From Candidatus Palauibacter poriticola (GTDB lineage: Bacteria > Gemmatimonadota > Gemmatimonadetes > Palauibacterales > Palauibacteraceae): DNA of 64,000 bases. The stretch is from positions 18,311-82,310 of the forward strand of contig JAAXHJ010000044.1 in NCBI GenBank assembly GCA_012270965.1. Direction: 5' to 3'. Under the pieces are notes generated by a model. The model had not been told where the DNA came from. It saw nothing but the letters and a program-made list of their open reading frames with translations, and did not search any database. Each line of letters starts with the position of its first letter. The stretch's first letter is position 1. Shown piece after piece: positions 1 through 14,611 of the stretch. Made by a program: the position numbers and the translations under genes.

Positions 1-1180
1 CCCTGTACTGGACCAGGTACGGCACGTCGAACTCATCGTATTCGACGAACCACGGCGTCTCCCAATCCGGCCAGATCAGATAGTTCTCTTCTGGCGGTTC
101 CAACCGTCCGATGAGCTGGCCGGACGTATCCAGCACCACCCACTCGGCCGAGTTCATCCCCGTACGCAGCAGTAACCAAGTGGTGCCGTCTTCTCCGGCC
201 CGGGCGCTGCGGACTGGCGGAAAAAACCGCGGCTCGCTGAAGGCCTCCTCCACGGCCCGACGATAACGGGCAAGGTCGACACCGGTACTGGCCCTTTGAA
301 CCCAGTCCTCCACTCGCCGGGATAGCCACTCATCGGTGACCCGTATGGGATCGTACGAATAATCACGAACCCAAGCGGTGTCCCCCTCAGCGTCGAACCG
401 GACGACTCGGTAGGTATGGGGGTCAGCCTCGTTCGCCACTTCCCGGTGAACAACCACGAGCCCCAACCCGTATCGCGAAGCCGTCGCCACTGAACGGTCG
501 TATACCGGCCGCACACCGAAATCCCGCCAGCCGGGTCGCCCTTGAATCTCGACTACGAAGGGTAAACCAACGACCGCCGACACGGTGTCGAGACGCGGGT
601 TTTGGTGATCGAGTCGGATCACGTGGTCGGGCCGGCGCGGGTCGGCGACGACCTCGTGGGCGTAACGCTCGGCACGGACGAGCAGGGACCCGTCGCCAAA
701 CATTCCGATCACATCCCAACGTCCGGGCGGCAGAGAGGGATGGCTCCAGATCGGTACCGATCTTGCGTAGCGATACTCCGCATCGAAGAACTGGACGCGC
801 CCGAGGTCCCCATCGGCGACCCAGAGCAACCCATCGTGAAGACCCATGGCGTCCAGCGACTCGAACTCCCCCGGCCCTCCTCCACGACCCCCTATGGAAC
901 CCAGAGGGGCACCGTCCACCGAAAGCACGCGAATGCGGTGTTCAAGCGGTTCCTCTACGAGGATTCTATCGCCATCGACGATCACGTCTCCAACGCTGGA
1001 GAAACCCCTCTCTGCGTCCAAAGCATCGCCAATCGTCGCGCCGCGCTCTAGAATCCACGTTGGCACTTGGCTCCAGACGGCGGCAGGCTCCGCCGCGCCG
1101 AAGGCGTAGAATCCCAGAATCCACCGTATGACGCCTGCCGGTGTCGTGCCTCTCCGCACCCACCTCTTCCTCTTCGTCAT
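1..1180 (-). CDS. Beta-propeller (NHL-like / six-bladed) family protein, paralog of 11217..12401. Start ATG at 1180; the 3' end runs off the window edge.
   Basis: Hand translation of the minus strand from 1180 gives MTKRKRWVRRGTTPAGVIRWILGFYAFGAAEPAAVWSQVPTWILERGATIGDALDAERGFSSVGDVIVDGDRILVEEPLEHRIRVLSVDGAPLGSIGGRGGGPGEFESLDAMGLHDGLLWVADGDLGRVQFFD... with no stop down to at least 600. It is not in the ORF track because it runs off the edge. It shares the GRRGGGPGEF / LWV.D...V.FFD motifs with the 11217..12401 protein. Confidence 0.6.
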   Translation of the reverse strand, partial: MTKRKRWVRRGTTPAGVIRWILGFYAFGAAEPAAVWSQVPTWILERGATIGDALDAERGFSSVGDVIVDGDRILVEEPLEHRIRVLSVDGAPLGSIGGRGGGPGEFESLDAMGLHDGLLWVADGDLGRVQFFDAEYRYARSVPIWSHPSLPPGRWDVIGMFGDGSLLVRAERYAHEVVADPRRPDHVIRLDHQNPRLDTVSAVVGLPFVVEIQGRPGWRDFGVRPVYDRSVATASRYGLGLVVVHREVANEADPHTYRVVRFDAEGDTAWVRDYSYDPIRVTDEWLSRRVEDWVQRASTGVDLARYRRAVEEAFSEPRFFPPVRSARAGEDGTTWLLLRTGMNSAEWVVLDTSGQLIGRLEPPEENYLIWPDWETPWFVEYDEFDVPYLVQYR

Positions 1181-1196: not shown

Positions 1197-1709
1197 TCAA
1201 ATGGTGATTCGCCGAAGGTTCGAACGGATCTCCGCAGCCCGAGAAGGCACGTAGTCTCTTTCAATGATAGCGCCGGTACAGGAGTGACGTCTGACCGCCG
1301 GAGGACTCGCGGCCGGTCGCTCTTCGCGATGCCGCCCGTCAAGAAACCCACTACTCGTCCGGGGGGCGAAACGCGTCTCCGGCGGAGTGACAACCGCATA
1401 GTGTCGCGAGACTCGGCCGTGTGGACCGATGGCCAGGGCGCAATCCCCCACGCCGTTCTCGTCCGTGCTGATGGTGCACTGGTCGTAGGTCGGCCGGTCG
1501 CACGACAGGCCGCCGTTGGTTTTTGCGATGCCGCAGTTCATCCAGGCGTCACGCTTGCGCCCTTCGGCGTTGGGATCGCCCTTCTCAACCTTACACACCG
1601 CGCATGGGGCGGAGGTCGCCTGAGCCGCCGCTGGCTCGGGAGCCGCAGCGTACAAGAGCGGGATCAGTACCACGAGGAACGGGAGCGGGGACAACAATCG
1701 GCGCAGCAT
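1197..1709 (-). CDS. Small secreted cysteine-rich protein (170 aa), paralog of 12398..12895.
   Basis: Signal peptide MLRRLLSPLPFLVVLIPLLYAAAPEPAAAQA, then 8 Cys. The C-terminal block RRHSCTGAIIERDYVPSRAAEIRSNLRRITI aligns with RRRCDGGIIARRYSASEAQAIFASTIRIRI of the 12398..12895 protein. The overlapping plus-strand ORF 1128..1739 is featureless. Confidence 0.5.
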   Translation of the reverse strand: MLRRLLSPLPFLVVLIPLLYAAAPEPAAAQATSAPCAVCKVEKGDPNAEGRKRDAWMNCGIAKTNGGLSCDRPTYDQCTISTDENGVGDCALAIGPHGRVSRHYAVVTPPETRFAPRTSSGFLDGRHREERPAASPPAVRRHSCTGAIIERDYVPSRAAEIRSNLRRITI

Positions 1710-1740: not shown

Positions 1741-2073
1741 CTAACAACCTGATGTGACCGGAATCCGCCAGCGCCACGAGTAGACGACGAGTTCGCTTTC
1801 CTCGAACGTCCGGAGGGCCACCATGATGGGGGCTTGCGACGCGGTGCCGACGAAACCGAACGGGGCGGCAACCAGGCGCTGCGACAGCACGCCACCACCG
1901 GCATCGTAGGTGACGAGGAGCCTCCCGTCGCTCGTGACATCCGCGATCACTTGGAGGAAGCCGGGATCGAGATGGAGGGCGCTCAGGGCGAGCCAGTTCG
2001 GAGGCAGTTCGCCCTCCCCCTCCCCGGTCGGTGGTGGGTCCGGCTGCATGGACGCGACCACCTCTCCGTTCAT
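1741..2073 (-). CDS. C-terminal third of a split propeller paralog. Its ATG overlaps the TGA of the upstream piece (ATGA).
   Basis: MNGEVVASMQPD...LHLDPGFLQV...ESELVVYSWRWR aligns with the contiguous C-terminus of the 12892..13983 protein (..LHLDPGIWN...TELVKYSWERV). Confidence 0.45.
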   Translation of the reverse strand: MNGEVVASMQPDPPPTGEGEGELPPNWLALSALHLDPGFLQVIADVTSDGRLLVTYDAGGGVLSQRLVAAPFGFVGTASQAPIMVALRTFEESELVVYSWRWRIPVTSGC

Positions 2074-2810
2074 CTCATCGCGATCCTCCAGACGGTGTGG
2101 GGCGGATCCCGGAACGCGACGAGCGCATCGGCCTCCGCGACCGCCAGGAAGATGCGGTCCGTCGATGGCCAGAGTGGCGCCACGAACGTCGAACGGGACA
2201 TCCCGCCGTTGCCGTCGGGCACGAAGTGAAGTTCCGTCCCGTCGGACGAGGAGGAGGGCGCGAGGAACCACCAGCCGCCCGGTCCCCGTACGGCCGAGTG
2301 AACCTCCGCCGACGCGGGAGATTCAACCCGCTTGGTGGGCGGAGCGGCCCACGCCATGTGTGACATCGTCCCGTCGGAGTGAACCATCTCGCCCGTGCTT
2401 CGGCCAAGGAAACGGCCACCGACGACCGGTCGGAAAGCGGGCAGCGTTCGGGGCTCCGCGTCCGACCCGTCGTAGAGAAGCACGGTCGGCGCGCGCGCCG
2501 ACCAAGCCAGCAGGCGATCCCCCTCCCTCGAGAGAACGGCACCGCCAACGGTCACGCCGGGCGGCACCCGGTGGGTGCGCATTTGCTCGAGTTCCAAGAC
2601 GGGCTTCTGGCGAGAAGCAGTCGAAGCGCCGGCGAGCCCGGAAGCCGGTGCCGAGAGGAGTGTCCAGAAGCCGGTGATGACCGTCCATGCGTGGACGTCT
2701 CGTCGAAAGCGGTACCAAGCCAACATGGTTTTCGTCTTCCCAAATCCTCGAACTCGGGGGGAACCGGCCAGCGTGTGAAGAAACCTCGATGGGTCGGTTT
2801 GCGGAGACAA
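2070..2810 (-). CDS. N-terminal two-thirds of a split propeller paralog (signal-peptide-like MLAWYRF...ITGFWTLLSAPASGLAGA; alternative start about 2726).
   Basis: VLELEQMRTHRVPPGVTVGGAVLSREGDRLLAWS aligns with SIELTEQSSVTIPDGRLLRGAVLSPSGELIVAWF of the 12892..13983 protein. It ends ...TVWRIAMR*, where the intact paralog continues in frame (RVWRIGGVTDQ...). Confidence 0.5.
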   Translation of the reverse strand: MSPQTDPSRFLHTLAGSPRVRGFGKTKTMLAWYRFRRDVHAWTVITGFWTLLSAPASGLAGASTASRQKPVLELEQMRTHRVPPGVTVGGAVLSREGDRLLAWSARAPTVLLYDGSDAEPRTLPAFRPVVGGRFLGRSTGEMVHSDGTMSHMAWAAPPTKRVESPASAEVHSAVRGPGGWWFLAPSSSSDGTELHFVPDGNGGMSRSTFVAPLWPSTDRIFLAVAEADALVAFRDPPHTVWRIAMR

Positions 2811-3672
2811 GGCGACGAAACGTATGAAGATGGCGCAAATCGACTACTTGTCGGTCGAATCGAATGATCGGACCAAGTCGGGCGGTGGCCCCCCCCCCCG
2901 AAGATTTTCCGAAAGCGAGGCCCAAGACGGGCTGGACATGCCGTACCGTAAACGCCGCGAGCAGCTGATCGGGAGGAATCCCCGGAAGCGCGCCGGGGGT
3001 GCAGCCAGGCCAAGTCCGCACCCTCCGGTTCACCGTTGCGCGACGGATTCCCGTGCGGGCGGTCACGCGCTTCCAGCCCAACCCGGAGCGGCGAAGCTCG
3101 TGCGCCCGGAGAATCGCGAGACCACCCAGCAGTCCGCCAAGGGTCGTCTCGCCTCGGGCGCAAGCCCGGAACTGCTGGAACAGCGTGACGGGAGCACAGC
3201 CGACGGCTTCCGCCAACTCTCTCACGTTGCGCACGGGTCGCGAGGCGGCCTGACGCACGGCATATACGAGAGCGCGGCGAAGAGCTCGGGGAATCTCGGC
3301 TCGTTCGAAAGCCGCCGCCAGGCACAACAGCCCCGACGTGACGCGCACCGCATCAAGCCGGGATGGCAGCCGGGTCCGCAGTGCCGGAAACCAGACAAGC
3401 GCCGATACGCGCACGGCAACCAACAGCTCGGCGACTTTGGGATGGCGGTCGGTCACGAGCACGACCGGCACCCACGGGCGCTCGCGTTCAAGTTTCCCCA
3501 GTAGATCGAGTCTCTCGCGGAGCCGATGTCTCCTGCAGGCAATGATCACGGCTTGGGCATCCCGGGTCCGCGCAACAAGCTCGCCCTCGGAGTCCGCCAC
3601 GTGCACAGCCCGGCCGGCTGCCCTGCCGATCTCCCGAATCTCCCAGGGCGTATCCGCAAGAACCAAAATCAT
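2323..3672 (-). CDS. Transcriptional regulator with a receiver-like N-terminal domain (no phospho-acceptor Asp) and an AraC-type HTH. As given, the ORF reads through a G11 tract and into the propeller gene. The true 3' end is probably near 2844.
   Basis: MILVLADTPWEIREIGRAAGRAVHVADSEGELVARTRDAQAVIIACRR...VPVVLVTD has a receiver fold. ...VRELAEAVGCAPVTLFQQFRACARGETTLGGLLGGLAILRAHELRRSGLGWKRVTARTGIRRATVNRRVRTW is AraC-type. Downstream of about residue 225 the product is low-complexity and overlaps 2070..2810 in another frame. Confidence 0.5.
   Translation of the reverse strand: MILVLADTPWEIREIGRAAGRAVHVADSEGELVARTRDAQAVIIACRRHRLRERLDLLGKLERERPWVPVVLVTDRHPKVAELLVAVRVSALVWFPALRTRLPSRLDAVRVTSGLLCLAAAFERAEIPRALRRALVYAVRQAASRPVRNVRELAEAVGCAPVTLFQQFRACARGETTLGGLLGGLAILRAHELRRSGLGWKRVTARTGIRRATVNRRVRTWPGCTPGALPGIPPDQLLAAFTVRHVQPVLGLAFGKSSGGGATARLGPIIRFDRQVVDLRHLHTFRRLVSANRPIEVSSHAGRFPPSSRIWEDENHVGLVPLSTRRPRMDGHHRLLDTPLGTGFRARRRFDCFSPEARLGTRANAHPPGAARRDRWRCRSLEGGGSPAGLVGARADRASLRRVGRGAPNAARFPTGRRWPFPWPKHGRDGSLRRDDVTHGVGRSAHQAG
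2889..2899. repeat. Homopolymeric tract C11 (G11 on the minus strand).
   Basis: Read directly from the sequence: ggcggtggccccccccccccgaag. Confidence 0.85.
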
Positions 3673-3833: not shown

Positions 3834-6305
3834 CTACTCGCCGTAGGGGACCCAGATGTTCTTGATCTGGGAGGCGCGGCGCAGGAACTCGCGCCCCTCG
3901 CCTCCGGGGCCGAACCAATTCCGGCCTCGATCCGCGTGCGCCCAGGTGCGCTTGAGGTTCGAGGCGGAACGCCGTTCCACATCGGCGGCACCCCCCTCCG
4001 ACCCGAAGTACCACATCCCGTCGACCGCGTCGTGCTCGGCGAGGATCGGCCGAAGTTCGTCCTCCAGGCCGGTCAGGATGTTGATGACGCCGGGAGGAAC
4101 ATCCGACGTCTCAAGCACGGGATAGGAATCCGTGGCCAACAGCGGCCACCGCTCCGAGGCCACGGCGACGACGGAGTTCCCGAGCGCGACGGGCGGGATC
4201 ACGCTGGAGATGAACCCCAGCAGTGCGGGCTCGACCGGACACACGACCGCCATCGTACCGAGCGGTTCGGGCATGGCGAGCGTCACGTTGCGGAAGGGCG
4301 TACGGTGGACGGCCCCGTCCCATTTGTCCGCCCAGGCCGCATAGGTGAACAGCCGGCGCACGGACGCCTCCACCTCGCACGCCGCGGCCTCGACGCCACA
4401 GCCCGTCAGAGTGCGCAGCCGCTCCTCGAACGACGTCCGCCGCGCCGAGAGGTTCTCCGCCACGTAGTAGAGGATCTGCGCCCGCAGGTGCGCCGTCGTA
4501 CCGTCCCACCCGCTGGCGAGCGCCGCCTCCACCGCGTTGCGGACATCCTTGCGGTTTCCGCGCGCCACTTCTCCCGCCGGGCACCCCGCATGGTCGCGGA
4601 CCGCAAGACTGTACCCGCCGTCCGGCCGCGCCTGCCGCCCCCCGATGTAGAGCTTCGCCGTGCGGTCGACCGGGGGCGGCGACCCGCGAGCCGGCGCTTC
4701 GCCGCCCGGCGCCGCAGTGCCCGCCTCCGCAGGATCCGCCTCCGCAATGTCCGCCTCCGCAATGTCCGCCTCCGCAGCGAGCGCCGAACCCGCCGCACGG
4801 CCCGCCGCGCGCCCCTCCGCGTCGACCGCCCGGCGCGGGCGGACGTACTCCCACAGGCCCTCCCGGCCGCCCTCGCGGCCGAATCCGCTCTCGCGGTAGC
4901 CGCCGAACCCGGACGCGGCGTCGAACACGTTCGTGCAGTTGATCCAGACCGTCCCGGCCTTGATCTGAGAGGCGATGTCGAGGGCGAGGTTCACGTTCTC
5001 CGTCCAGACGCTCGCCGCGAGGCCGTAGCGCGTGTTGTTCGCGAGCGCGACAGCCTCCGCCGGCGTGCGGAAGGTCATCTGAACCACGACCGGACCGAAG
5101 ATCTCGACCTGGGCGATCCGCGCGGCCGGCGACACGTCCGTGCAAAGGGTCGGCGGGTAGAACCACCCGTCCCGGGGCACGCTCCAGGACGGTTGCCAGA
5201 CCGCGGCGCCCTCCTCGCGTCCCTCTGCGACGAGCGACTCGATCTTCTTCAACTGGACCGGCGCGATGATCGCGCCGATGTCGACGCCCTTGTCGAGCGG
5301 GGCCCCCATGCGGAGCGTCTCCATGCGGGCGCGCAGGCGGTCGGCGAGCGCGTCGGCGATCCCCTCGTGGGCGAGGATCCGCGATCCGGCGCAGCACACC
5401 TGTCCCTGGTTGAACCAGATCGCGTCGACCACGCCCTCGACCACGCTGTCGAGGTCCGCGTCGTCGAACACCACGAAGGGCGACTTCCCGCCGAGTTCCA
5501 GCGAGATCTTCTTGCCCGTCCCCACCGTCGCCTCGCGAATGAGGCGTCCGACCTCCGTCGAGCCCGTGAAGGCGATCTTGTCGACATCCGGATGATCGAC
5601 GATCGCGGCACCCGTGCGGCTATCGCCGGTCACGATGTTCACGACGCCCGGCGGGAGATCGATGTCGCGGCAGAGTTCCGCGAACCGGAGCGCCGTCAGC
5701 GAGGTGAACTCGGCGGGCTTGAGGACGACGGTGTTCCCGGTCGCGAGGGCGGGCGCGATCTTCCAAGCGAGCATGAGCAGCGGGAAGTTCCAGGGGATGA
5801 TCTGGCCCGCGACGCCGAGCGGCTCGCAGTCCGCGAGTTCGCCGTCCATGAGCTGAGCCCAGCCCGCGTGGTGATAGAAGTGCCTCGCGGCGAGCGGAAT
5901 GTCGATATCGCGCGATTCGCGGATGGGCTTGCCGTTGTCGAGCGTCTCGAGCGTCGCGAAGAGCCGGGAGTGCTTCTGCAGGTGACGGGCGATCGCGTAC
6001 AGGTGGCGCGCCCGCCCGTGTCCCCCGAGATCCCGCCAGGTCGCCTGGGCCGCCCGCGCCGCCGCCACCGCGCGGTCCACATCGCCGCCCCCCCCCTGCG
6101 CAATCTCGCCCAGTTGCTCTTCGGTGCTCGGGTCGAAAGTCGCGAAGAACCCGCCGTCCGCCGGTTCGCACCAAGCGCCGCCGATGTAGTGCCCGAAGCG
6201 GGGACCCCGTTCCCCGATCCACGCGCGCGCCTCATCGGCGGCCTCCGGGGCGGGACCGTACTCCATCGTCTCGAACAGTTCCGCGATCTTCGGCATCTGT
6301 TTCAA
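3834..6305 (-). CDS. Aldehyde dehydrogenase family protein with two tandem ALDH-like domains joined by an AEADI-repeat linker.
   Basis: The N-terminal domain has ELGGKSP, IWFNQGQVCCAGSRIL and PWNFPL motifs. The second half (KLYIGG...VAENL...MAMPEPLGTMAVVCP...) is a second ALDH-like fold. The DNA repeat gcctccgcaatgtccgcctccgcaatgtccgcctccgcagc lies at about 4730-4790. Confidence 0.8.
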   Translation of the reverse strand: MKQMPKIAELFETMEYGPAPEAADEARAWIGERGPRFGHYIGGAWCEPADGGFFATFDPSTEEQLGEIAQGGGGDVDRAVAAARAAQATWRDLGGHGRARHLYAIARHLQKHSRLFATLETLDNGKPIRESRDIDIPLAARHFYHHAGWAQLMDGELADCEPLGVAGQIIPWNFPLLMLAWKIAPALATGNTVVLKPAEFTSLTALRFAELCRDIDLPPGVVNIVTGDSRTGAAIVDHPDVDKIAFTGSTEVGRLIREATVGTGKKISLELGGKSPFVVFDDADLDSVVEGVVDAIWFNQGQVCCAGSRILAHEGIADALADRLRARMETLRMGAPLDKGVDIGAIIAPVQLKKIESLVAEGREEGAAVWQPSWSVPRDGWFYPPTLCTDVSPAARIAQVEIFGPVVVQMTFRTPAEAVALANNTRYGLAASVWTENVNLALDIASQIKAGTVWINCTNVFDAASGFGGYRESGFGREGGREGLWEYVRPRRAVDAEGRAAGRAAGSALAAEADIAEADIAEADPAEAGTAAPGGEAPARGSPPPVDRTAKLYIGGRQARPDGGYSLAVRDHAGCPAGEVARGNRKDVRNAVEAALASGWDGTTAHLRAQILYYVAENLSARRTSFEERLRTLTGCGVEAAACEVEASVRRLFTYAAWADKWDGAVHRTPFRNVTLAMPEPLGTMAVVCPVEPALLGFISSVIPPVALGNSVVAVASERWPLLATDSYPVLETSDVPPGVINILTGLEDELRPILAEHDAVDGMWYFGSEGGAADVERRSASNLKRTWAHADRGRNWFGPGGEGREFLRRASQIKNIWVPYGE

Positions 6306-6324
6306 CCCCCTCTCAACCCGACCC

Positions 6325-7368
6325 TCACCCCAGCGGGTGCCGGTGGTAGGCGGAATACCGCCCCGTCGCCCGGTGCTCCAATTGGCGTTCGATGTCCGCG
6401 AGCAGTGAACTCGCGCCGAATCGGAACAGCGACCGGTCGAGCCATTCCCCGCCCAGCTCCTCCTTCACCAAGATCAGCCATTCGAGCGCCTGCTTCGCCC
6501 TCCCCACTCCGCCGGCCGGCTTCAGGCCCACGTGGAAGCCGGAAAGCCGCCGGTAGGCGCGGACCGCGCGCGCCATCACGAGTCCGGCCGGGAGCGTGGC
6601 GTTGACCTTCTCCTTGCCCGTCGAGGTCTTGATGAAGTCGGCGCCGGCCATCATGCACGTCCAGCTCGCGCGGGCGACGTTGCGCAGGCTCCCGAGTTCG
6701 CCCGTGGCCATGATCGTCTTCAGATGGGCCCCGCCGCACGCCTCGCGGAAGGCGCGGACCTCGTCGTACAGCGCCTCCCAGCCGCCCGTGAGCACGTGGC
6801 GGCGGGTGATGACGATGTCGATTTCGCGCGCCCCGGCCTCGACCGCCTCGCCGATCTCCTCGACCCGCTGCGCGAAGGGCGTGAGCCCGGCGGGGAAACC
6901 GGCGGCGACCGCGCACACCGGGATGTCGTCGCCGGCGAGCGCCTCGACGACGGCCGGCACCAGCGTCGGATACACGCAGACGGAGGCCACGCGCAGGCCG
7001 AGATCCTCGGCCCCCAGCGCGCGGAGGAGATCGGGACGCACGGGCTGGCGGGCCTTGGCGGCGAGGCGGGCCACCCGTCCCGGGGTGTCGTCTCCGGCGA
7101 GCGTCGTGAGGTCGATCATCGTCACGGCGCGGAGGAGCCAGGCGGTCTGCCACTCCTTCTTGATGCTGCGGCGCTTCCCCAGCGTGGCGGCCCTGCGCTC
7201 GATCGCGCTGCGGTTCGCGGCCTGATCCCGGATCAGATCCAGATCGAGCGGCGTCCCGGCGTTTCGCCCTCGCATGGGGACGACGGCGGCCTTCGCGCCG
7301 GCGCGAACCCGGCGGGGAGATGAAGTGCCGTCCCGGGGTGGGTTCCCGCGTTCCGTCGCTCTGTTCAT
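6325..7368 (-). CDS. deoC: Deoxyribose-phosphate aldolase, long (DERA-like) form. Probable start is the M at 7275.
   Basis: WLLRAVTMIDLTTLAGDDT, ASVCVYP, EIDIVI, LKTIMATGEL and ADFIKTSTG motifs. It lies 20 bp upstream of the ALDH gene on the same strand. Confidence 0.8.
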   Translation of the reverse strand: MNRATERGNPPRDGTSSPRRVRAGAKAAVVPMRGRNAGTPLDLDLIRDQAANRSAIERRAATLGKRRSIKKEWQTAWLLRAVTMIDLTTLAGDDTPGRVARLAAKARQPVRPDLLRALGAEDLGLRVASVCVYPTLVPAVVEALAGDDIPVCAVAAGFPAGLTPFAQRVEEIGEAVEAGAREIDIVITRRHVLTGGWEALYDEVRAFREACGGAHLKTIMATGELGSLRNVARASWTCMMAGADFIKTSTGKEKVNATLPAGLVMARAVRAYRRLSGFHVGLKPAGGVGRAKQALEWLILVKEELGGEWLDRSLFRFGASSLLADIERQLEHRATGRYSAYHRHPLG

Positions 7369-7582
7369 GATGCGTCGTTCATGAGGCGTCCATGGGTGTC
7401 GATGATCGCTGGGAGAAGGCCATCGGTAGAATATCGCTCGGATGCCGAACTCGGGCGAATGAATCTCCCGCTTGGAGGACGGCGATGTCTACGGCGAGGC
7501 GCCGGCGGTTGCTTGACGCCCGGCCGCCCGCGGGCCGAAGCTGTTGCCCGGACGCCCGTGAGAGAGTTCGCTGGAGCCGTGA

Positions 7583-9811
<2,229 letters not shown>

Positions 9812-9848: not shown

Positions 9849-10940
9849 TCACCGAACCGGCAAGCCGCGCAGGGTCGGCGTGGGCTTTCGTCGCGGAAGC
9901 TCAGCTTCGCGATGCGCCAAGCGGGAAACTGCTGTTCCGGAGAAGGTAGAGATGCCTGCCACCACCCAGAACCCGCGAGTCCTCCGGCAATGGCACCTCC
10001 TCGTCGAGCTTCCGGCCGGTTCGCCGGTCGAGTCGCCCGCCACGACGGCCGGAAAGCGCGCCAACGAACCCAATACGGGTTGTTCTATGGGTACGTACGG
10101 GAGCCGATACGCGCTCCAAGCGGCCTCGTTGGCCGTCCACCGATGGAATAGCAGAGGACGCCGGACGAACCGCGAAACCCCCTCATCCGACGCGCCCAGG
10201 CTTACGGACAGCAGCAGATCGTCGTCCACGGACGCGACGCGTATCGGGGTCCCGGGCCACCGCAGGATCGTGTCGGGCAGCAGGGCGCTCGTGAGGTAGG
10301 TGAGCCGACCCTATCCCGAGTCGAGCACCACGAAGCGACCGGAGGACGTCTCGGCCAGGCCGGCGATGCCCGGAACGCGAACGGGGCCCTCGCCGAAGCG
10401 TCCGAACGCCGCCTCGAGCCGCCCCCGCGCATCATAGGCGCGGACCTTGCGCCAAGGCCGCCAGACCGTTGATCCGCTGGAATTCGACCGGCCCCTCGCC
10501 GAATCGTCCAAGGGCCGCGTCGCGCCGTCCGTCCTCAACACCTTGCCAAGAACGATCCGCATCGCTCCACTTCCCGTATCGGGCGCACCCCCGGCATGCC
10601 GCGACCGCCAGCACCGTCGGCGAACGGAGCGAGGCGCAGCAAACCGTGGATCCTCCCGCAGAACAGCCACCATCGACCTCTCACCCCCGATCCCGCGCTC
10701 GTCGCGGCTCGGTTTGTCCGGAAGCGCGGTCCCGGCCGGACCGGGGAGCTCGGGACGATAGTGCGAACACAGTTCCGGATTCCCAAAAAGCACCCGCCCG
10801 CGGGACCTGCCGACAATCCACCGCTGAACGGCAGACACCCCGACGGTACGCCGGAACCGCCATAACAAACGCCGATTGCGCGTACAAGGCTCGCCGACCG
10901 CACCGAGGGTGCGGGGCGGGCGCAATCGGATCACCGACGC
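9849..10940 (-). pseudogene. Decayed fragments of a propeller-family paralog.
   Basis: Frame-broken pieces encode AYDARGRLEAAFGRFGEGPVRVPGIAGLAETSSGRFVVLDSG and AALGRFGEGPVEFQRINGLAALAQG, which match the FDHRGRFAQTLGRRGGGPGEFIAPLLMGWYSSELWVSD blade motif. There is no long intact ORF. Confidence 0.35.
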
Positions 10941-11216: not shown

Positions 11217-12401
11217 TCACTTCAGAATCTCATACTTGACGACATACGAAATGTCCATCTCATCGGTCTCTACGATCCAGCACTCCGTCTCCGTAGCGGA
11301 TACAACGCGCGACGCTGCCGGAAGCCTGACTCTTCCAATCGTTGCCCCACTCCGATCAAGGACGAGCCACTCGGCTTCTCCGCTTCCATCGTCGGCCTGG
11401 CCCAACCACGTCGTCCCATCGCCTCCCGCCAACAGTCGTGTCACTGGCGGAAAGTACCGGCGTGTCTCAAAGAATTCTCTCACAGCGCCCGCGTGGGCCG
11501 CGCGATCGACGACCGAGTTCGACGTGAGCATGTTCTGTATTCGGTCGTCGAAAAAATCCTCGGGCACGCTCCGCGGCCGATATGCTACACTTCGATCGAA
11601 AACTGTGTCTCCAGCTGCTGAAAGGCGTGTAACCTGAAACTCCGGCGTCCCGGCGCCATTCCAACTACGTCGATTCACCACAACCGCCGCGGCTCCATCC
11701 GGTGCCAAGTCGATCAAATCCCCCTGAGGAAGGGGCGTCGACAAAAACATGATCGAGTTCGACTGCAATCCCGCCGTTATCTCGGCAATTTCTCCTTCCC
11801 GCGACAGCACCGCCAACGTGTCACGCACCGCACCGCTTGCATCCGAAACCGGAAGCACGACGAACGGTGTGAGCCCGCGAGCAATCGCGTGACTCCCGGT
11901 CTCGGGATACCCCACGATTCCTCCATCCGCCAAAACCGCCCACGGACCCCAGCTGAACACATCGTACGCCGCTTCAAACGGTTGCGCATACGGTACCGTC
12001 TTCACACCGCCGTTGTCGACATCGAAGAAAGTGACACGCCTTGCATTCCAGTCACTCACCCACAGTTCGGAACTGTACCATCCCATGAGCAGAGGCGCAA
12101 TGAATTCTCCCGGTCCGCCCCCGCGACGCCCAAGAGTCTGGGCGAATCGGCCACGGTGATCGAAAACCACAACGGTCCCGTCCTGTGGTTGCAATATATA
12201 TACGTGATTCTGATCCACCAGAACCGTGCCCACTCTCGTGAGCGCCGACGATGGGTCGTCTACGCTTCCGATCGTCACGCCGCGACGGAGCGACCATTCG
12301 GACACCATGGCTGGCGGGGCGGTGTCCGTCCCACACCCACTCCAGGTCAACCACGCAGCCAGCACGCCCGTCGGCCACCTCATGACCCGGCCGATACTCA
12401 T
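11217..12401 (-). CDS. Propeller-family lipoprotein (NHL-like / six-bladed).
   Basis: Lipoprotein signal ...AAWLTWSGCGTD. GRRGGGPGEF and SSELWVSDWNARRVTFFD motifs. The C-terminus is ...ISYVVKYEILK. The start ATG overlaps the upstream stop (ATGA at 12398-12401). Confidence 0.65.
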   Translation of the reverse strand: MSIGRVMRWPTGVLAAWLTWSGCGTDTAPPAMVSEWSLRRGVTIGSVDDPSSALTRVGTVLVDQNHVYILQPQDGTVVVFDHRGRFAQTLGRRGGGPGEFIAPLLMGWYSSELWVSDWNARRVTFFDVDNGGVKTVPYAQPFEAAYDVFSWGPWAVLADGGIVGYPETGSHAIARGLTPFVVLPVSDASGAVRDTLAVLSREGEIAEITAGLQSNSIMFLSTPLPQGDLIDLAPDGAAAVVVNRRSWNGAGTPEFQVTRLSAAGDTVFDRSVAYRPRSVPEDFFDDRIQNMLTSNSVVDRAAHAGAVREFFETRRYFPPVTRLLAGGDGTTWLGQADDGSGEAEWLVLDRSGATIGRVRLPAASRVVSATETECWIVETDEMDISYVVKYEILK

Positions 12402-12895
12402 ATTCGAATGCGTATCGTGCTGGCAAAAATCGCTTGCGCCTCGCTCGCCGAGTACCGGCGAGCGATGATTCCTCCGTCGCAGCGCCGCCGCATGATCGAG
12501 GCAGGAACCAGATCATTACGGATCATCTCCGCGTACCGCGCGTCCAGGTCCGATCCGTAGACCGCAGGCACGGTACCTACGGAACTCGCGTGTGAATAGC
12601 CGAGGGGCACTGATCCGTCCGTCCCGTCGGGACGAAGTCGCCCATCTAACATTACGACGCTGCCGAGACAGAATTGACCGCCGACCTCGCAACGTTCGCA
12701 CTCCGGCGTCGTACAGTAGTCATCCAGACCCCAGAGTGCGTTGTGGACGCAGTAATTACACTCTACCGCGCTTCCATCGGCCGGTCCGGGGCCGGACGTA
12801 CACCAAAAGCACTGCGCCACTGCGGGTGCTGCGACCCCCGCCCCGGCCAGAATAGCAAGGCCAAGACTCAGCATGACGAATCGTGAGCGTGTCAT
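12398..12895 (-). CDS. Small secreted cysteine-rich protein (165 aa, 9 Cys).
   Basis: Signal peptide MTRSRFVMLSLGLAILAGAGVAAPAVAQ, then CFWCTSGPGPADGSAVECNYCVHN...C.. It is a paralog of 1197..1709. It has ATGA overlaps with both flanking propeller genes. Confidence 0.55.
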   Translation of the reverse strand: MTRSRFVMLSLGLAILAGAGVAAPAVAQCFWCTSGPGPADGSAVECNYCVHNALWGLDDYCTTPECERCEVGGQFCLGSVVMLDGRLRPDGTDGSVPLGYSHASSVGTVPAVYGSDLDARYAEMIRNDLVPASIMRRRCDGGIIARRYSASEAQAIFASTIRIRI

Positions 12896-13983
12896 CGTTC
12901 TTCTCCTGCGCTTCCGGTTGAGTCTGGGACGCGTTCCCAGGAATACTTTACAAGCTCCGTATTATTCAACGTCCGGATGGCCAGTACGACGGGACCGATG
13001 GTAGCACTATCGACGAGCCCAAAGGCGGCGTCGACCGTCGTATATCGTGCGAATCGGCCGTTTGAGTTGAACCAAAGCAACAGCCGCTGGTCCGTCCCCC
13101 GGTGCGCCATGGTTTGAGCATAGCCCGGCCCGATGGCGACGACGGAGGTCGTATTCCAAATCCCTGGATCGAGATGCAAGGACCTGGCGATGTTGTTGTC
13201 GAACCAGTCGCCCGTGACCTGTTGGAACTTCACGGGCGGCTGATCCGTGACGCCGCCAATGCGCCATACGCGAAAGGGATTGAAACTCTGCCACACGAGC
13301 GCGTCGTGTCCGTTAGCGGAGAGTGCGATGCTCCCTGCGTAGGTCGAGTCGGGAATCCAGGCGTCTTGGCCGTCGGGCATTTGGACGCGTGGCGGCGAAA
13401 GGTCCGAGGACGCAAGAAACCAGCCGGACGTGGTCCGCGCTGCAATATCGGCTTTCGCTGCGCCGGGCAGACTCTGTCGGGCAACTACGTTTCCCGCCGT
13501 GTCCGCCACAACCAGGTCAGCTCCGCCGCCATCGATGATTTCGAGCGTGGTCGCATCCAAGAACGCGACGCCGATCGCTTGCCCGACATGCTGGGTAAGT
13601 ACGTCCTTGCCAATGGATCCACGGTAAACGCGGATCCCCGGAGTACTATTGAACCAAGCAACGATCAACTCTCCCGAAGGTGACAAGACCGCGCCCCGTA
13701 GCAGTCTCCCGTCTGGTATCGTGACGCTCGACTGCTCGGTCAACTCGATTGAAGGGCGTGACCACCGAGCATCACTTGACTGCCCGAGTTCCGTCGCAGG
13801 TGACACGGTTCCGTGTGGGGTCGGTTCGGCGGATGAGCGGCCGGGATGGGCGAGGAGTAGCAGGGCAACTGAAAGGATCTTAACGATCTGGCAGCATCGC
13901 CGCCGTCCGCGGACGGGTGGAGCTGTCCCGCCTTCACGGACGATTGATTTCCGCGGTTGAACCCGGCCCGTGTTGTTCCCCAC
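12892..13983 (-). CDS. Secreted propeller-family protein (intact paralog). Proposed GTG start at 13983; the start is uncertain.
   Basis: Signal-peptide-like RGRRRCCQIVKILSVALLLLAHPGRSSAEP. The body is homologous to 2070..2810 plus 1741..2073. The 5' 590 nt of the track ORF (to 14574) is Arg/Ser-rich junk that overlaps the IS remnant. Confidence 0.55.
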   Translation of the reverse strand: MGNNTGRVQPRKSIVREGGTAPPVRGRRRCCQIVKILSVALLLLAHPGRSSAEPTPHGTVSPATELGQSSDARWSRPSIELTEQSSVTIPDGRLLRGAVLSPSGELIVAWFNSTPGIRVYRGSIGKDVLTQHVGQAIGVAFLDATTLEIIDGGGADLVVADTAGNVVARQSLPGAAKADIAARTTSGWFLASSDLSPPRVQMPDGQDAWIPDSTYAGSIALSANGHDALVWQSFNPFRVWRIGGVTDQPPVKFQQVTGDWFDNNIARSLHLDPGIWNTTSVVAIGPGYAQTMAHRGTDQRLLLWFNSNGRFARYTTVDAAFGLVDSATIGPVVLAIRTLNNTELVKYSWERVPDSTGSAGEER

Positions 13984-14032
13984 AACCCCTCTCGCGTGGC
14001 CGGGAGAGGTGGGTGCGCACCGCCGGCCCGCC

Positions 14033-14611
14033 TCAGGCCGCATGGAGGCTCTCGTAGTCGGCCGGCGACTCGTAGCCGAGGGCGGAGTGAAGCCGACGCG
14101 TGTTGTGGAAGCCCTCGATGAAGCCGAAGGCCTCGTGCCGGGCCTCCGACGCCGTGCGTAACGAGCGCCTCCGGACGAGTTCGCACTCGGGCGTCGTGAA
14201 GAAGCTCTCGCACAGCGCGTTGCGGTGCGCGTCGCCGACCGAGCCCATCGACCGGGCGATGCCCGCGCCGCGGCAGCGCTCCCCGTCAAGGCGCCGCAGC
14301 TCCGTCGTCGGGCCGTCGCTTCGGAACCCCTCGTCCACGTCCGCCTGCCCGAGCCAGTTCCGGATCGTCGGCTCCGAGAGCTCGAACTCCCGGATCGGTG
14401 AGCCCGGCCCACAACCGGACCGCGCAAGCTCGACCAGCCGTTCCCGGTACTCCGGCAGGTACCGCCCCGCCCTCGCTGCCACGACGCGCCTCCGTGGTTG
14501 GCCCCATGGGAAGGTGCCGGTGAAACCGGGGCAACTCCAGGGCGGAGCATGGCGGGTTTGAACGACACCCTCACTCTCGTGTGCGATTGGCCTCATGGGA
14601 TGCGCACTCAA
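14033..14611 (-). mobile_element. IS3-family transposase remnant: OrfA HTH fused to the extreme C-terminus of OrfB, with the DDE core deleted.
   Basis: RYLPEYRERLVELARSGCGPGSPIREFELSEPTIRNWLGQADVDEG matches the IS3 OrfA HTH. DAHRNALCESFFTTPECELVRRR...EARHEAFGFIEGFHNTRRLHSALGYESPADYE matches the OrfB C-terminal tail. There is an AT-richer patch at about 14605-14650. Confidence 0.7.

Follow-up and report, generated by a model that had tools for sequence, protein, structure and literature searches.

A gene cluster for predicted exported β-propeller and cysteine-rich proteins in Candidatus Palauibacter poriticola and its relatives

A cluster of three minus-strand genes, designated here A, B and C, was analyzed in a 64,000-nucleotide stretch of the genome of Candidatus Palauibacter poriticola (contig JAAXHJ010000044.1, positions 18,311 to 82,310; phylum Gemmatimonadota). 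This stretch, hereafter the window, is part of the metagenome scaffold ROBB19-1 scaffold_104, and positions below are those of the window unless another locus is named. The cluster is a genuine three-gene unit restricted to uncultured marine Palauibacterales, and represents a lineage-restricted variant on uncharacterized exported propellers of the NHL/DUF5128 type. It combines a predicted lipoprotein whose fold is confidently predicted to be a six-bladed propeller (C), a second propeller that is a degenerate paralogue of C (A), and a small, apparently disulfide-rich protein that founds an orphan family (B). A and B have neither a described family nor a literature, and are new in that sense. 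The reading tentatively favored here, held at somewhat less than even confidence, is that the three products form a lineage-specific, nonenzymatic extracytoplasmic assembly around an oxidatively folded B subunit, with the binding itself presumed. The features that define the cluster are as follows:

12892..13983, minus strand: gene A, 363 residues from a GTG at 13983 (start uncertain); predicted exported, degenerate six-bladed propeller paralogous to C
12398..12895, minus strand: gene B, 165 residues, Sec signal, predicted disulfide-rich; founds an orphan family
11217..12401, minus strand: gene C, 394 residues; predicted lipoprotein with an LTWSGC lipobox; predicted six-bladed NHL/DUF5128-type β-propeller
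12892..12895, minus strand: ATGA stop/start overlap of A and B
12398..12401, minus strand: ATGA stop/start overlap of B and C
12903..12907, minus strand: Shine-Dalgarno sequence AGGAG for B, within the 3' end of A and 7 nt upstream of the B start
14033..14611, minus strand: truncated transposase of the insertion sequence (IS) family IS3 (rve_3; PF13683, E=1.3e-7), directly upstream of A

The three proteins and their families

Inspection of the open reading frames (ORFs) and of the sequence confirmed the general layout given in a preliminary description of this DNA, including the three minus-strand genes chained by ATGA overlaps at 12892-12895 and 12398-12401, the second gene of 165 codons with nine cysteines and the C-terminus IRIRI, and the LTWSGCG lipobox of the third gene. 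Its account of the first gene as a propeller holds only in part: the stretch TELVKYSW does lie near the C-terminus of A, which is a degenerate paralogue of C, but the GRRGGGPGEF blade motif ascribed to A actually belongs to C, and A contains no such motif.

The prediction of C as a six-bladed NHL/DUF5128-type propeller draws on both structure and sequence. An AlphaFold2 model of C built with 59 homologues reached a predicted local distance difference test (pLDDT) score of 92.8, and it most closely resembles six-bladed NHL and Bacteroides propellers in structure; a helical insert is present in the model at about residues 285-311. The only Pfam match above threshold is DUF5128 (PF17170; 27 bits against a gathering cutoff of 22.9), spanning one blade (residues 54-102 of C, positions 43-91 of the 321-position model), and the C-family profile matches Thin, TRIM71, TRIM2/3 and Brat at E=1e-41 to 1e-19 via the G-x-G-PGEF blade motif, with the NHL motif kept only in the first two blades of C. 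Invariant columns in a 59-sequence alignment of the family are those of the structural NHL motif (G..GPGEF) together with a small number of R, W, G, P and D positions, and no His or Tyr occurs among its invariant or near-invariant columns, so that no catalytic site is seen. The absence of catalytic motifs noted in the preliminary description is thereby upheld, since the invariant columns of the C family are structural and include no conserved polar catalytic set; in profile searches, C scored only with DUF5128/NHL-type blades and A matched nothing in Pfam or NCBIfam, with no characterized enzyme family among the results. Residues 18-23 of C read L-T-W-S-G-C, and a Cys occupies that column in 45 of 59 relatives, lipobox rules for Gemmatimonadota not being established. 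Named homologues of C come from Palauibacter and from Gemmatimonadales and Longimicrobiales (Gemmatimonadota), together with one Bryobacterales protein. To our knowledge, exported propellers of the DUF5128/NHL type occur widely across several bacterial phyla, and no function is known for any of them.

A is a degenerate paralogue of C in which the NHL motif has been lost entirely: an hhalign comparison of the A family (with sequences of the A' type described below added) and the C family gave a probability of 87.8% and E=3.3e-6 over 278 colinear columns. A profile built from close A homologues alone aligned weakly to the C profile (32%), and the A profile showed weak matches to designed Pizza6 propellers (E about 0.005). 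The 18 homologues of A are all Palauibacter-like, those with names being Candidatus Palauibacter or unclassified Gemmatimonadetes metagenome-assembled genomes. The start of A is uncertain: the GTG at 13983 would give an n-region of 33 residues, gene callers on the source contig used an ATG at 14043, and the IS3 transposase fragment ends at 14033. No lipobox is present in A of the window, whereas many of its orthologues carry an APGC lipobox. Both mature A and mature C are essentially cysteine-free.

B carries a Sec (general secretory pathway) signal ending in AAPAVAQ before the first mature Cys and contains nine cysteines. An indexed search with B returned two homologues only (66-68% identical), and a HMMER scan of 1.84 billion representatives with the B profile recovered 24 proteins at E<=1e-3. 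Family representatives are 112-187 residues long, except for P0118 (377 residues), a chimeric A-B fusion protein. Neither B nor its 26-member family matched Pfam, NCBIfam, PADLOC or PDB sequences. Ratios of nonsynonymous to synonymous substitution rates (dN/dS) against two orthologues were 0.33-0.41 for B, compared with 0.26 for A and 0.17-0.18 for C, and B is a genuine gene under purifying selection.

Four parts can be distinguished in B: a conserved signal peptide ending in AxAQ, a Cys-rich N-domain ending in LDGR, a linker, and a C-terminus of fixed length. The linker is hypervariable (mean identity 14%, 16-52 residues) and has no Cys; the 30 C-terminal residues have a mean identity of 42% and follow the pattern R[RH]xC[DT]G[GA]I[IV]x[RK]xY…R[LIV]x[ILV]-COOH. 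Cysteines were counted in 26 aligned sequences, and the N-domain contains 6 or 8 of them in every case, while the C-terminal module contains exactly one, two truncated entries excepted. Within the N-domain, C29, C32, C61, C69 and C76 are invariant and C49 is nearly so; C46 and C66 occur together in 15 sequences and are jointly missing from 10, the single exception being alignment-ambiguous. The CxxC at the mature N-terminus is likewise invariant. The always-even count and the joint gain or loss of C46 and C66 argue that B is disulfide-bonded, and the pattern suggests that the N-domain forms three or four internal disulfides, leaving one cysteine, Cys139, unpaired. For the same reasons, a zinc-ribbon or other metal site formed by the four CxxC motifs of B was considered and rejected. 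No invariant Trp was found in B, the best column having W in 11 of 26 sequences. An AlphaFold2 model of B built from the 26-sequence alignment reached a pLDDT of 54.6, too poor for a fold search.

Gene order, upstream regulator and module turnover

All B-family loci examined adjoin these propellers, namely the two copies in the window and the loci designated L004-L012, L014, L015 and L021-L023. In almost every case an A-like propeller lies on one side of B and a C-like one on the other; the exceptions are an extra B''-C'' pair without A in L014 and locus L009b, where only a fragment of A is left. The A-B-C order is repeated in L005-L012, a set that comprises named Palauibacter genomes as well as a chromosome on which three modules stand in tandem together with remnants, and also in the more divergent metagenome loci L014, L015, L021/L022 and L023. 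The preliminary description had made its proposal depend on conservation and synteny of the Cys-rich ORF in related genomes, and both are found: the gene is syntenic in every relative examined and has the dN/dS values given above. Every named genome with B belongs to Palauibacter (Gemmatimonadota), whereas the distant C-like propellers of Gemmatimonadales and Longimicrobiales occur without B.

Signals of translational coupling between A and B are a further shared feature. The ATGA (-4) overlap and the Shine-Dalgarno sequence are kept at this junction in 7 of 7 ABC-type loci of other genomes, and the overlap is therefore not due to chance; it measures -8 in L014 and -7 in L015, and every related locus has GGAG or AGGAG 7-9 nt ahead of the B start. 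At the B/C junction, the ATGA overlap is kept in L005 only, with spacings of +3 to +164 nt elsewhere.

A second, paralogous set of genes and two further elements lie between the window start and the cluster:

1741..2810, minus strand: A', paralogue of A; frame broken by a tandem duplication of 5 bp (GATGA) at 2070..2079
1197..1709, minus strand: B', paralogue of B; 170 residues, 7 Cys (6 + 1)
1..1177, minus strand: C', paralogue of C; 397 residues in full, last codons beyond the window
2830..3672, minus strand: putative regulator upstream of A'; about 280 residues, 3' end uncertain
9849..10940, minus strand: pseudogene of a different NHL-like lipoprotein propeller (p369 family), identified by tblastn with the p369 protein of L005

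The paralogous module that the preliminary description placed at the window start is largely as stated, in that A', B' and C' all match their counterparts in the same order, but it has no ATGA coupling (gaps of 31 and 19 nt) and its A' is broken. C' (5..1177) is 31.7% identical to C and scores 10.6 bits with DUF5128, below the cutoff, A' having no match; B' matches B at a BLASTP E=1e-4 and shares its C-terminal motif. Both halves of A' match A, and removal of one copy of the duplicated GATGA restores an intact ORF of 354 residues, indicating that the frameshift is a recent inactivation or a population variant.

The putative regulator upstream of A' has only weak HTH_23 and HTH_IclR matches (E about 0.09), its N-terminal half resembling a CheY-like receiver by eye, and its ORF in the window continues beyond the expected stop into the A' region. 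Homologues that are 50-58% identical lie directly upstream of A in L005, L008, L009, L010 and L012. In the cluster reviewed here, the IS3 fragment at 14033..14611 sits where related modules have this gene. The unit normally includes this upstream putative regulator gene, which the reviewed copy has lost to the IS3 fragment.

The region at 9849..10940 had been taken for a decayed third copy of the module. This proved incorrect, as it gave no tblastn match to A, B or C and is instead a pseudogene of the p369 propeller family: it aligns with the 369-residue protein of L005 at 62% identity for residues 82-221 and at 73% for residues 325-368, the two segments lying in different frames, and it has frameshifts and an internal deletion of about 100 codons. 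Intact p369 genes occur in other genomes, paired with a 396-residue propeller lipoprotein (p396) beside many modules.

Disruption and exchange are evident in the related loci as well. A full IS3 element (8183..9403) lies inside B in L009. In L004 (2939..6437), insertion of a type IIG restriction-modification (R-M) gene (N6_Mtase/Eco57I) and of an IS1595 transposase has separated B from C, and the C-terminus of B there is altered and extended. A is reduced to fragments in L009b and L013. Sequence identities are mosaic: between L005 and L008, A is 88% identical, B about 45% and C 52%, whereas between the window and L005 the B N-domain is 86% and C 83% identical, with A at only 57%. B and C therefore move together as one cassette, and A can be exchanged; B-C pairs combine with differing A genes and are retained at loci whose A has decayed. 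Identity correlations are 0.75 for the B N-domain with C, 0.80 for the B C-terminus with C, and 0.41 for the B N-domain with A. A mirror-tree comparison of the two ends of B with A and C shows only that B travels with C, co-adaptation and linkage being inseparable in such a comparison. In L014, nucleotidyltransferase/HEPN pairs (1760..2355 and 11539..12295) flank an array of propeller and Cys-rich genes, which suggests a variable genomic island.

Several features of the immediate surroundings were also recorded. GC content is 0.61 over 12001..14000, covering genes A and B, against about 0.70 (0.69-0.71) in the surrounding sequence. A promoter and terminator scan yielded no more sites than shuffled sequence. 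Between the two modules, positions 3834..9811 carry housekeeping genes, which encode a DeoC aldolase, a catalase-peroxidase of the KatG type and an aldehyde dehydrogenase with two Aldedh domains. Next to A, the genes for a nucleoside phosphorylase and a nucleoside transporter are syntenic with L005.

Redox neighbors and comparison with known systems

On the source contig, just beyond window position 1 (L019, 11957..15346), five genes follow C'. They encode a DsbD_2-like membrane protein, a Cys-rich protein with a twin-arginine translocation (Tat) signal (SRRTFTRA; 141 residues, 13 cysteines), a DUF5128/NHL propeller without signal peptide, a MauE protein (PF07291, 58.8 bits; CXC motif CAC), and a membrane-anchored MauD-like redoxin with a CQPC motif (best match TIGR02661, E=1e-4). 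The same gene set follows A-B-C in L014 and L021/L022, and it thus occurs in three divergent genomes including that of the window. The position of the signal-less propeller beside the Tat-signal small protein suggests hitchhiker export of a preformed pair. According to a 2026 preprint, MauE is able to substitute for DsbB and uses a CXC active site (bioRxiv 10.64898/2026.03.05.709764).

A Bryobacterales protein of 597 residues, P0100, consists of a membrane-anchored DsbC/G-like thioredoxin domain (CPFC) fused to a C-like propeller that is 26% identical to C over 83% of the length of C. This fusion is a hint of a Rosetta-stone link between these propellers and thiol-disulfide exchange. It may be likened to NHLRC2 and plant SOQ1, which we take to represent the thioredoxin-NHL propeller fusion type. 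Unlike such fusions, A, B and C contain no thioredoxin domain, and no search assigned a thioredoxin fold to B. Taken together, the MauE/MauD neighbors, the reported activity of MauE and the P0100 fusion tie propellers of this kind to disulfide chemistry.

Among characterized or solved propellers, the closest in type to C are the six-bladed proteins of Bacteroides (DUF5128, PF17170; DUF4221 BVU_1028, PDB 3s9j; BF0058, PDB 4raa), with 10-12% identity of C to the solved structures. No B-like partner has been described for them, and these families are themselves without known function and hence explain nothing. NHL-repeat domains, such as those of Brat, TRIM71/TRIM2 and Thin or the PknD sensor domain, differ from C, which contains a helical insert and is a predicted lipoprotein of a bacterium. 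The match to peptidyl-α-hydroxyglycine α-amidating lyase (PAL) concerns the generic blade motif only; the C family has no invariant His or Tyr to form the Zn/Tyr/Arg site of this enzyme, and membership of C in the PAL family was rejected on the basis of the 59-sequence alignment. Membership in an anti-phage defense system was likewise rejected, as no PADLOC model matched A, B, C, the regulator, B' or C' at E<=0.1. A literature search on DUF5128 and on six-bladed propellers with MauE/MauD retrieved nothing relevant, and the Palauibacterales genome paper is silent on both propellers and cysteine-rich proteins.

Interpretation of the module

According to the favored assembly reading, all three products would be exported, A and B by Sec signals and C as a membrane-anchored lipoprotein, to judge from their signal and lipobox sequences. 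B would fold oxidatively in the periplasm, presumably in dependence on MauE/MauD, into a small knot with three or four disulfides, followed by a flexible, fast-evolving linker and then the fixed 30-residue C-terminal module with its one unpaired cysteine. B may then act as a small subunit or partner of the propellers, possibly in a tethering role, with C as its co-adapted, specific partner and A as a more interchangeable second propeller that would be held at a fixed ratio to B via the conserved ATGA coupling. The biological role would most likely be recognition or binding at the cell envelope, and the function is probably a variable and frequently lost one outside core metabolism. The preliminary description had likewise proposed a dedicated extracytoplasmic module with a repeated Cys-rich partner. 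Synteny, purifying selection and the lack of any enzyme family agree with that proposal, but A is not an NHL-motif protein, the regulator was omitted, and the third copy was wrong.

Several observations weigh against the assembly reading. Binding of B to the propellers is something that we infer, the model of B (pLDDT 54.6) being too poor for interface analysis, and A and C offer no conserved cysteine with which the single C-terminal one of B could pair. Plain linkage would by itself also lead B and C to diverge in a correlated manner. No MauE or MauD gene occurs in the window or within 7 kb of the reviewed copy or of ten ABC-type loci, and the MauE/MauD pair may simply be the general disulfide system of the organism. 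In addition, modules are often broken by IS insertions, frameshifts and deletions; their function is therefore dispensable, and its nature is left unconstrained.

Other explanations were weighed as well. The module might reflect competition-driven diversification, with B as a secreted disulfide-rich effector (bacteriocin-like, defensin-like or a signaling peptide) and the propellers as immunity, receptor or export-chaperone proteins. The dN/dS of B, higher than that of A and C (0.17-0.26), is consistent with such an effector, as are its hypervariable linker, the reassortment of B-C cassettes relative to A, the low GC content of the locus, and the occurrence of modules in multiple, tandem and often decayed copies amid IS elements, an R-M system and HEPN/nucleotidyltransferase pairs. 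However, B matches no toxin, bacteriocin or defense family and has no dedicated exporter or protease adjacent to it; both of its ends are its most conserved parts, leaving no variable C-terminal "warhead", and immunity proteins are not usually paired paralogous propellers of 350-400 residues. This explanation is considered rather unlikely. Alternatively, there may be no specific partnership at all, with B an unrelated small secreted protein that was caught between paralogues of an expanding group of exported propeller lipoproteins and inherited by linkage. C-like propellers do occur in tandem without B in Gemmatimonadales and Longimicrobiales, p369/p396 pairs accompany modules without any small partner, and frequent decay suggests weak constraint; on the other hand, none of the loci examined has B apart from these propellers, and the position of B, the A/B ATGA overlap and the Shine-Dalgarno sequence are kept across modules whose proteins are only 25-35% identical, which linkage alone can hardly explain. 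This reading, too, is regarded as unlikely.

A redox or quinoprotein-like enzyme on the plan of methylamine dehydrogenase (MADH; MauB, MauA, MauE and MauD), with a propeller as large subunit and B as a cross-linked, cofactor-bearing small subunit whose lone Cys or N-terminal CxxC is reactive, is a more doubtful proposition, and appears quite improbable. The likeness lies in the parts list, since a propeller, a small exported Cys-rich protein, and MauE and a MauD-like redoxin beside sister modules are shared with the mau system, and both the invariant CxxC of mature B and its conserved unpaired Cys would suit a reactive center. Against this, B has no sequence match to the MADH light chain MauA (Me-amine-dh_L) or to any other Pfam or PDB family and lacks a conserved Trp pair, and the absence of any invariant Trp makes a cofactor of the tryptophan tryptophylquinone (TTQ) or cysteine tryptophylquinone (CTQ) type unlikely. 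C is of the six-bladed NHL type and without sequence match to the heavy chain MauB, which is seven-bladed, and the propellers have no conserved polar catalytic set. The gene tables of the loci list no MauG-like heme protein or radical-SAM maturase; for MauG, this refers to the Pfam tables of the fetched loci, the whole window not having been scanned for CCP_MauG. Membership in the MADH family was rejected for lack of MauA and MauB matches and of an invariant Trp, and because of the six blades. A bolder reading would see in Palauibacterales a hitherto unrecognized class of periplasmic hetero-oligomers that join NHL propellers to dedicated Cys-rich subunits (the Sec-exported B family and the Tat-exported 13-Cys family with its hitchhiking signal-less propeller), matured by MauE/MauD, in which the lone cysteine of B might serve as reactive center or covalent link, as a six-bladed, tryptophan-independent counterpart of the quinoprotein amine dehydrogenases. 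This reading is speculative, and little credence is attached to it.

Although the module by itself reveals no new biochemical mechanism, it has implications for both the lineage and the protein families involved. The locus shows how such modules turn over by exchange of cassettes, IS insertion and frameshift in an uncultured lineage associated with sponges and sediments, and B constitutes a new protein family that is very narrow and whose cysteine parity is exceptionally clear. For exported DUF5128/NHL propellers, the module supplies a candidate for a dedicated partner and links them genetically, and repeatedly, to a disulfide-forming pathway (MauE) recognized only recently, whereby the question of what such propellers bind becomes a concrete experiment.

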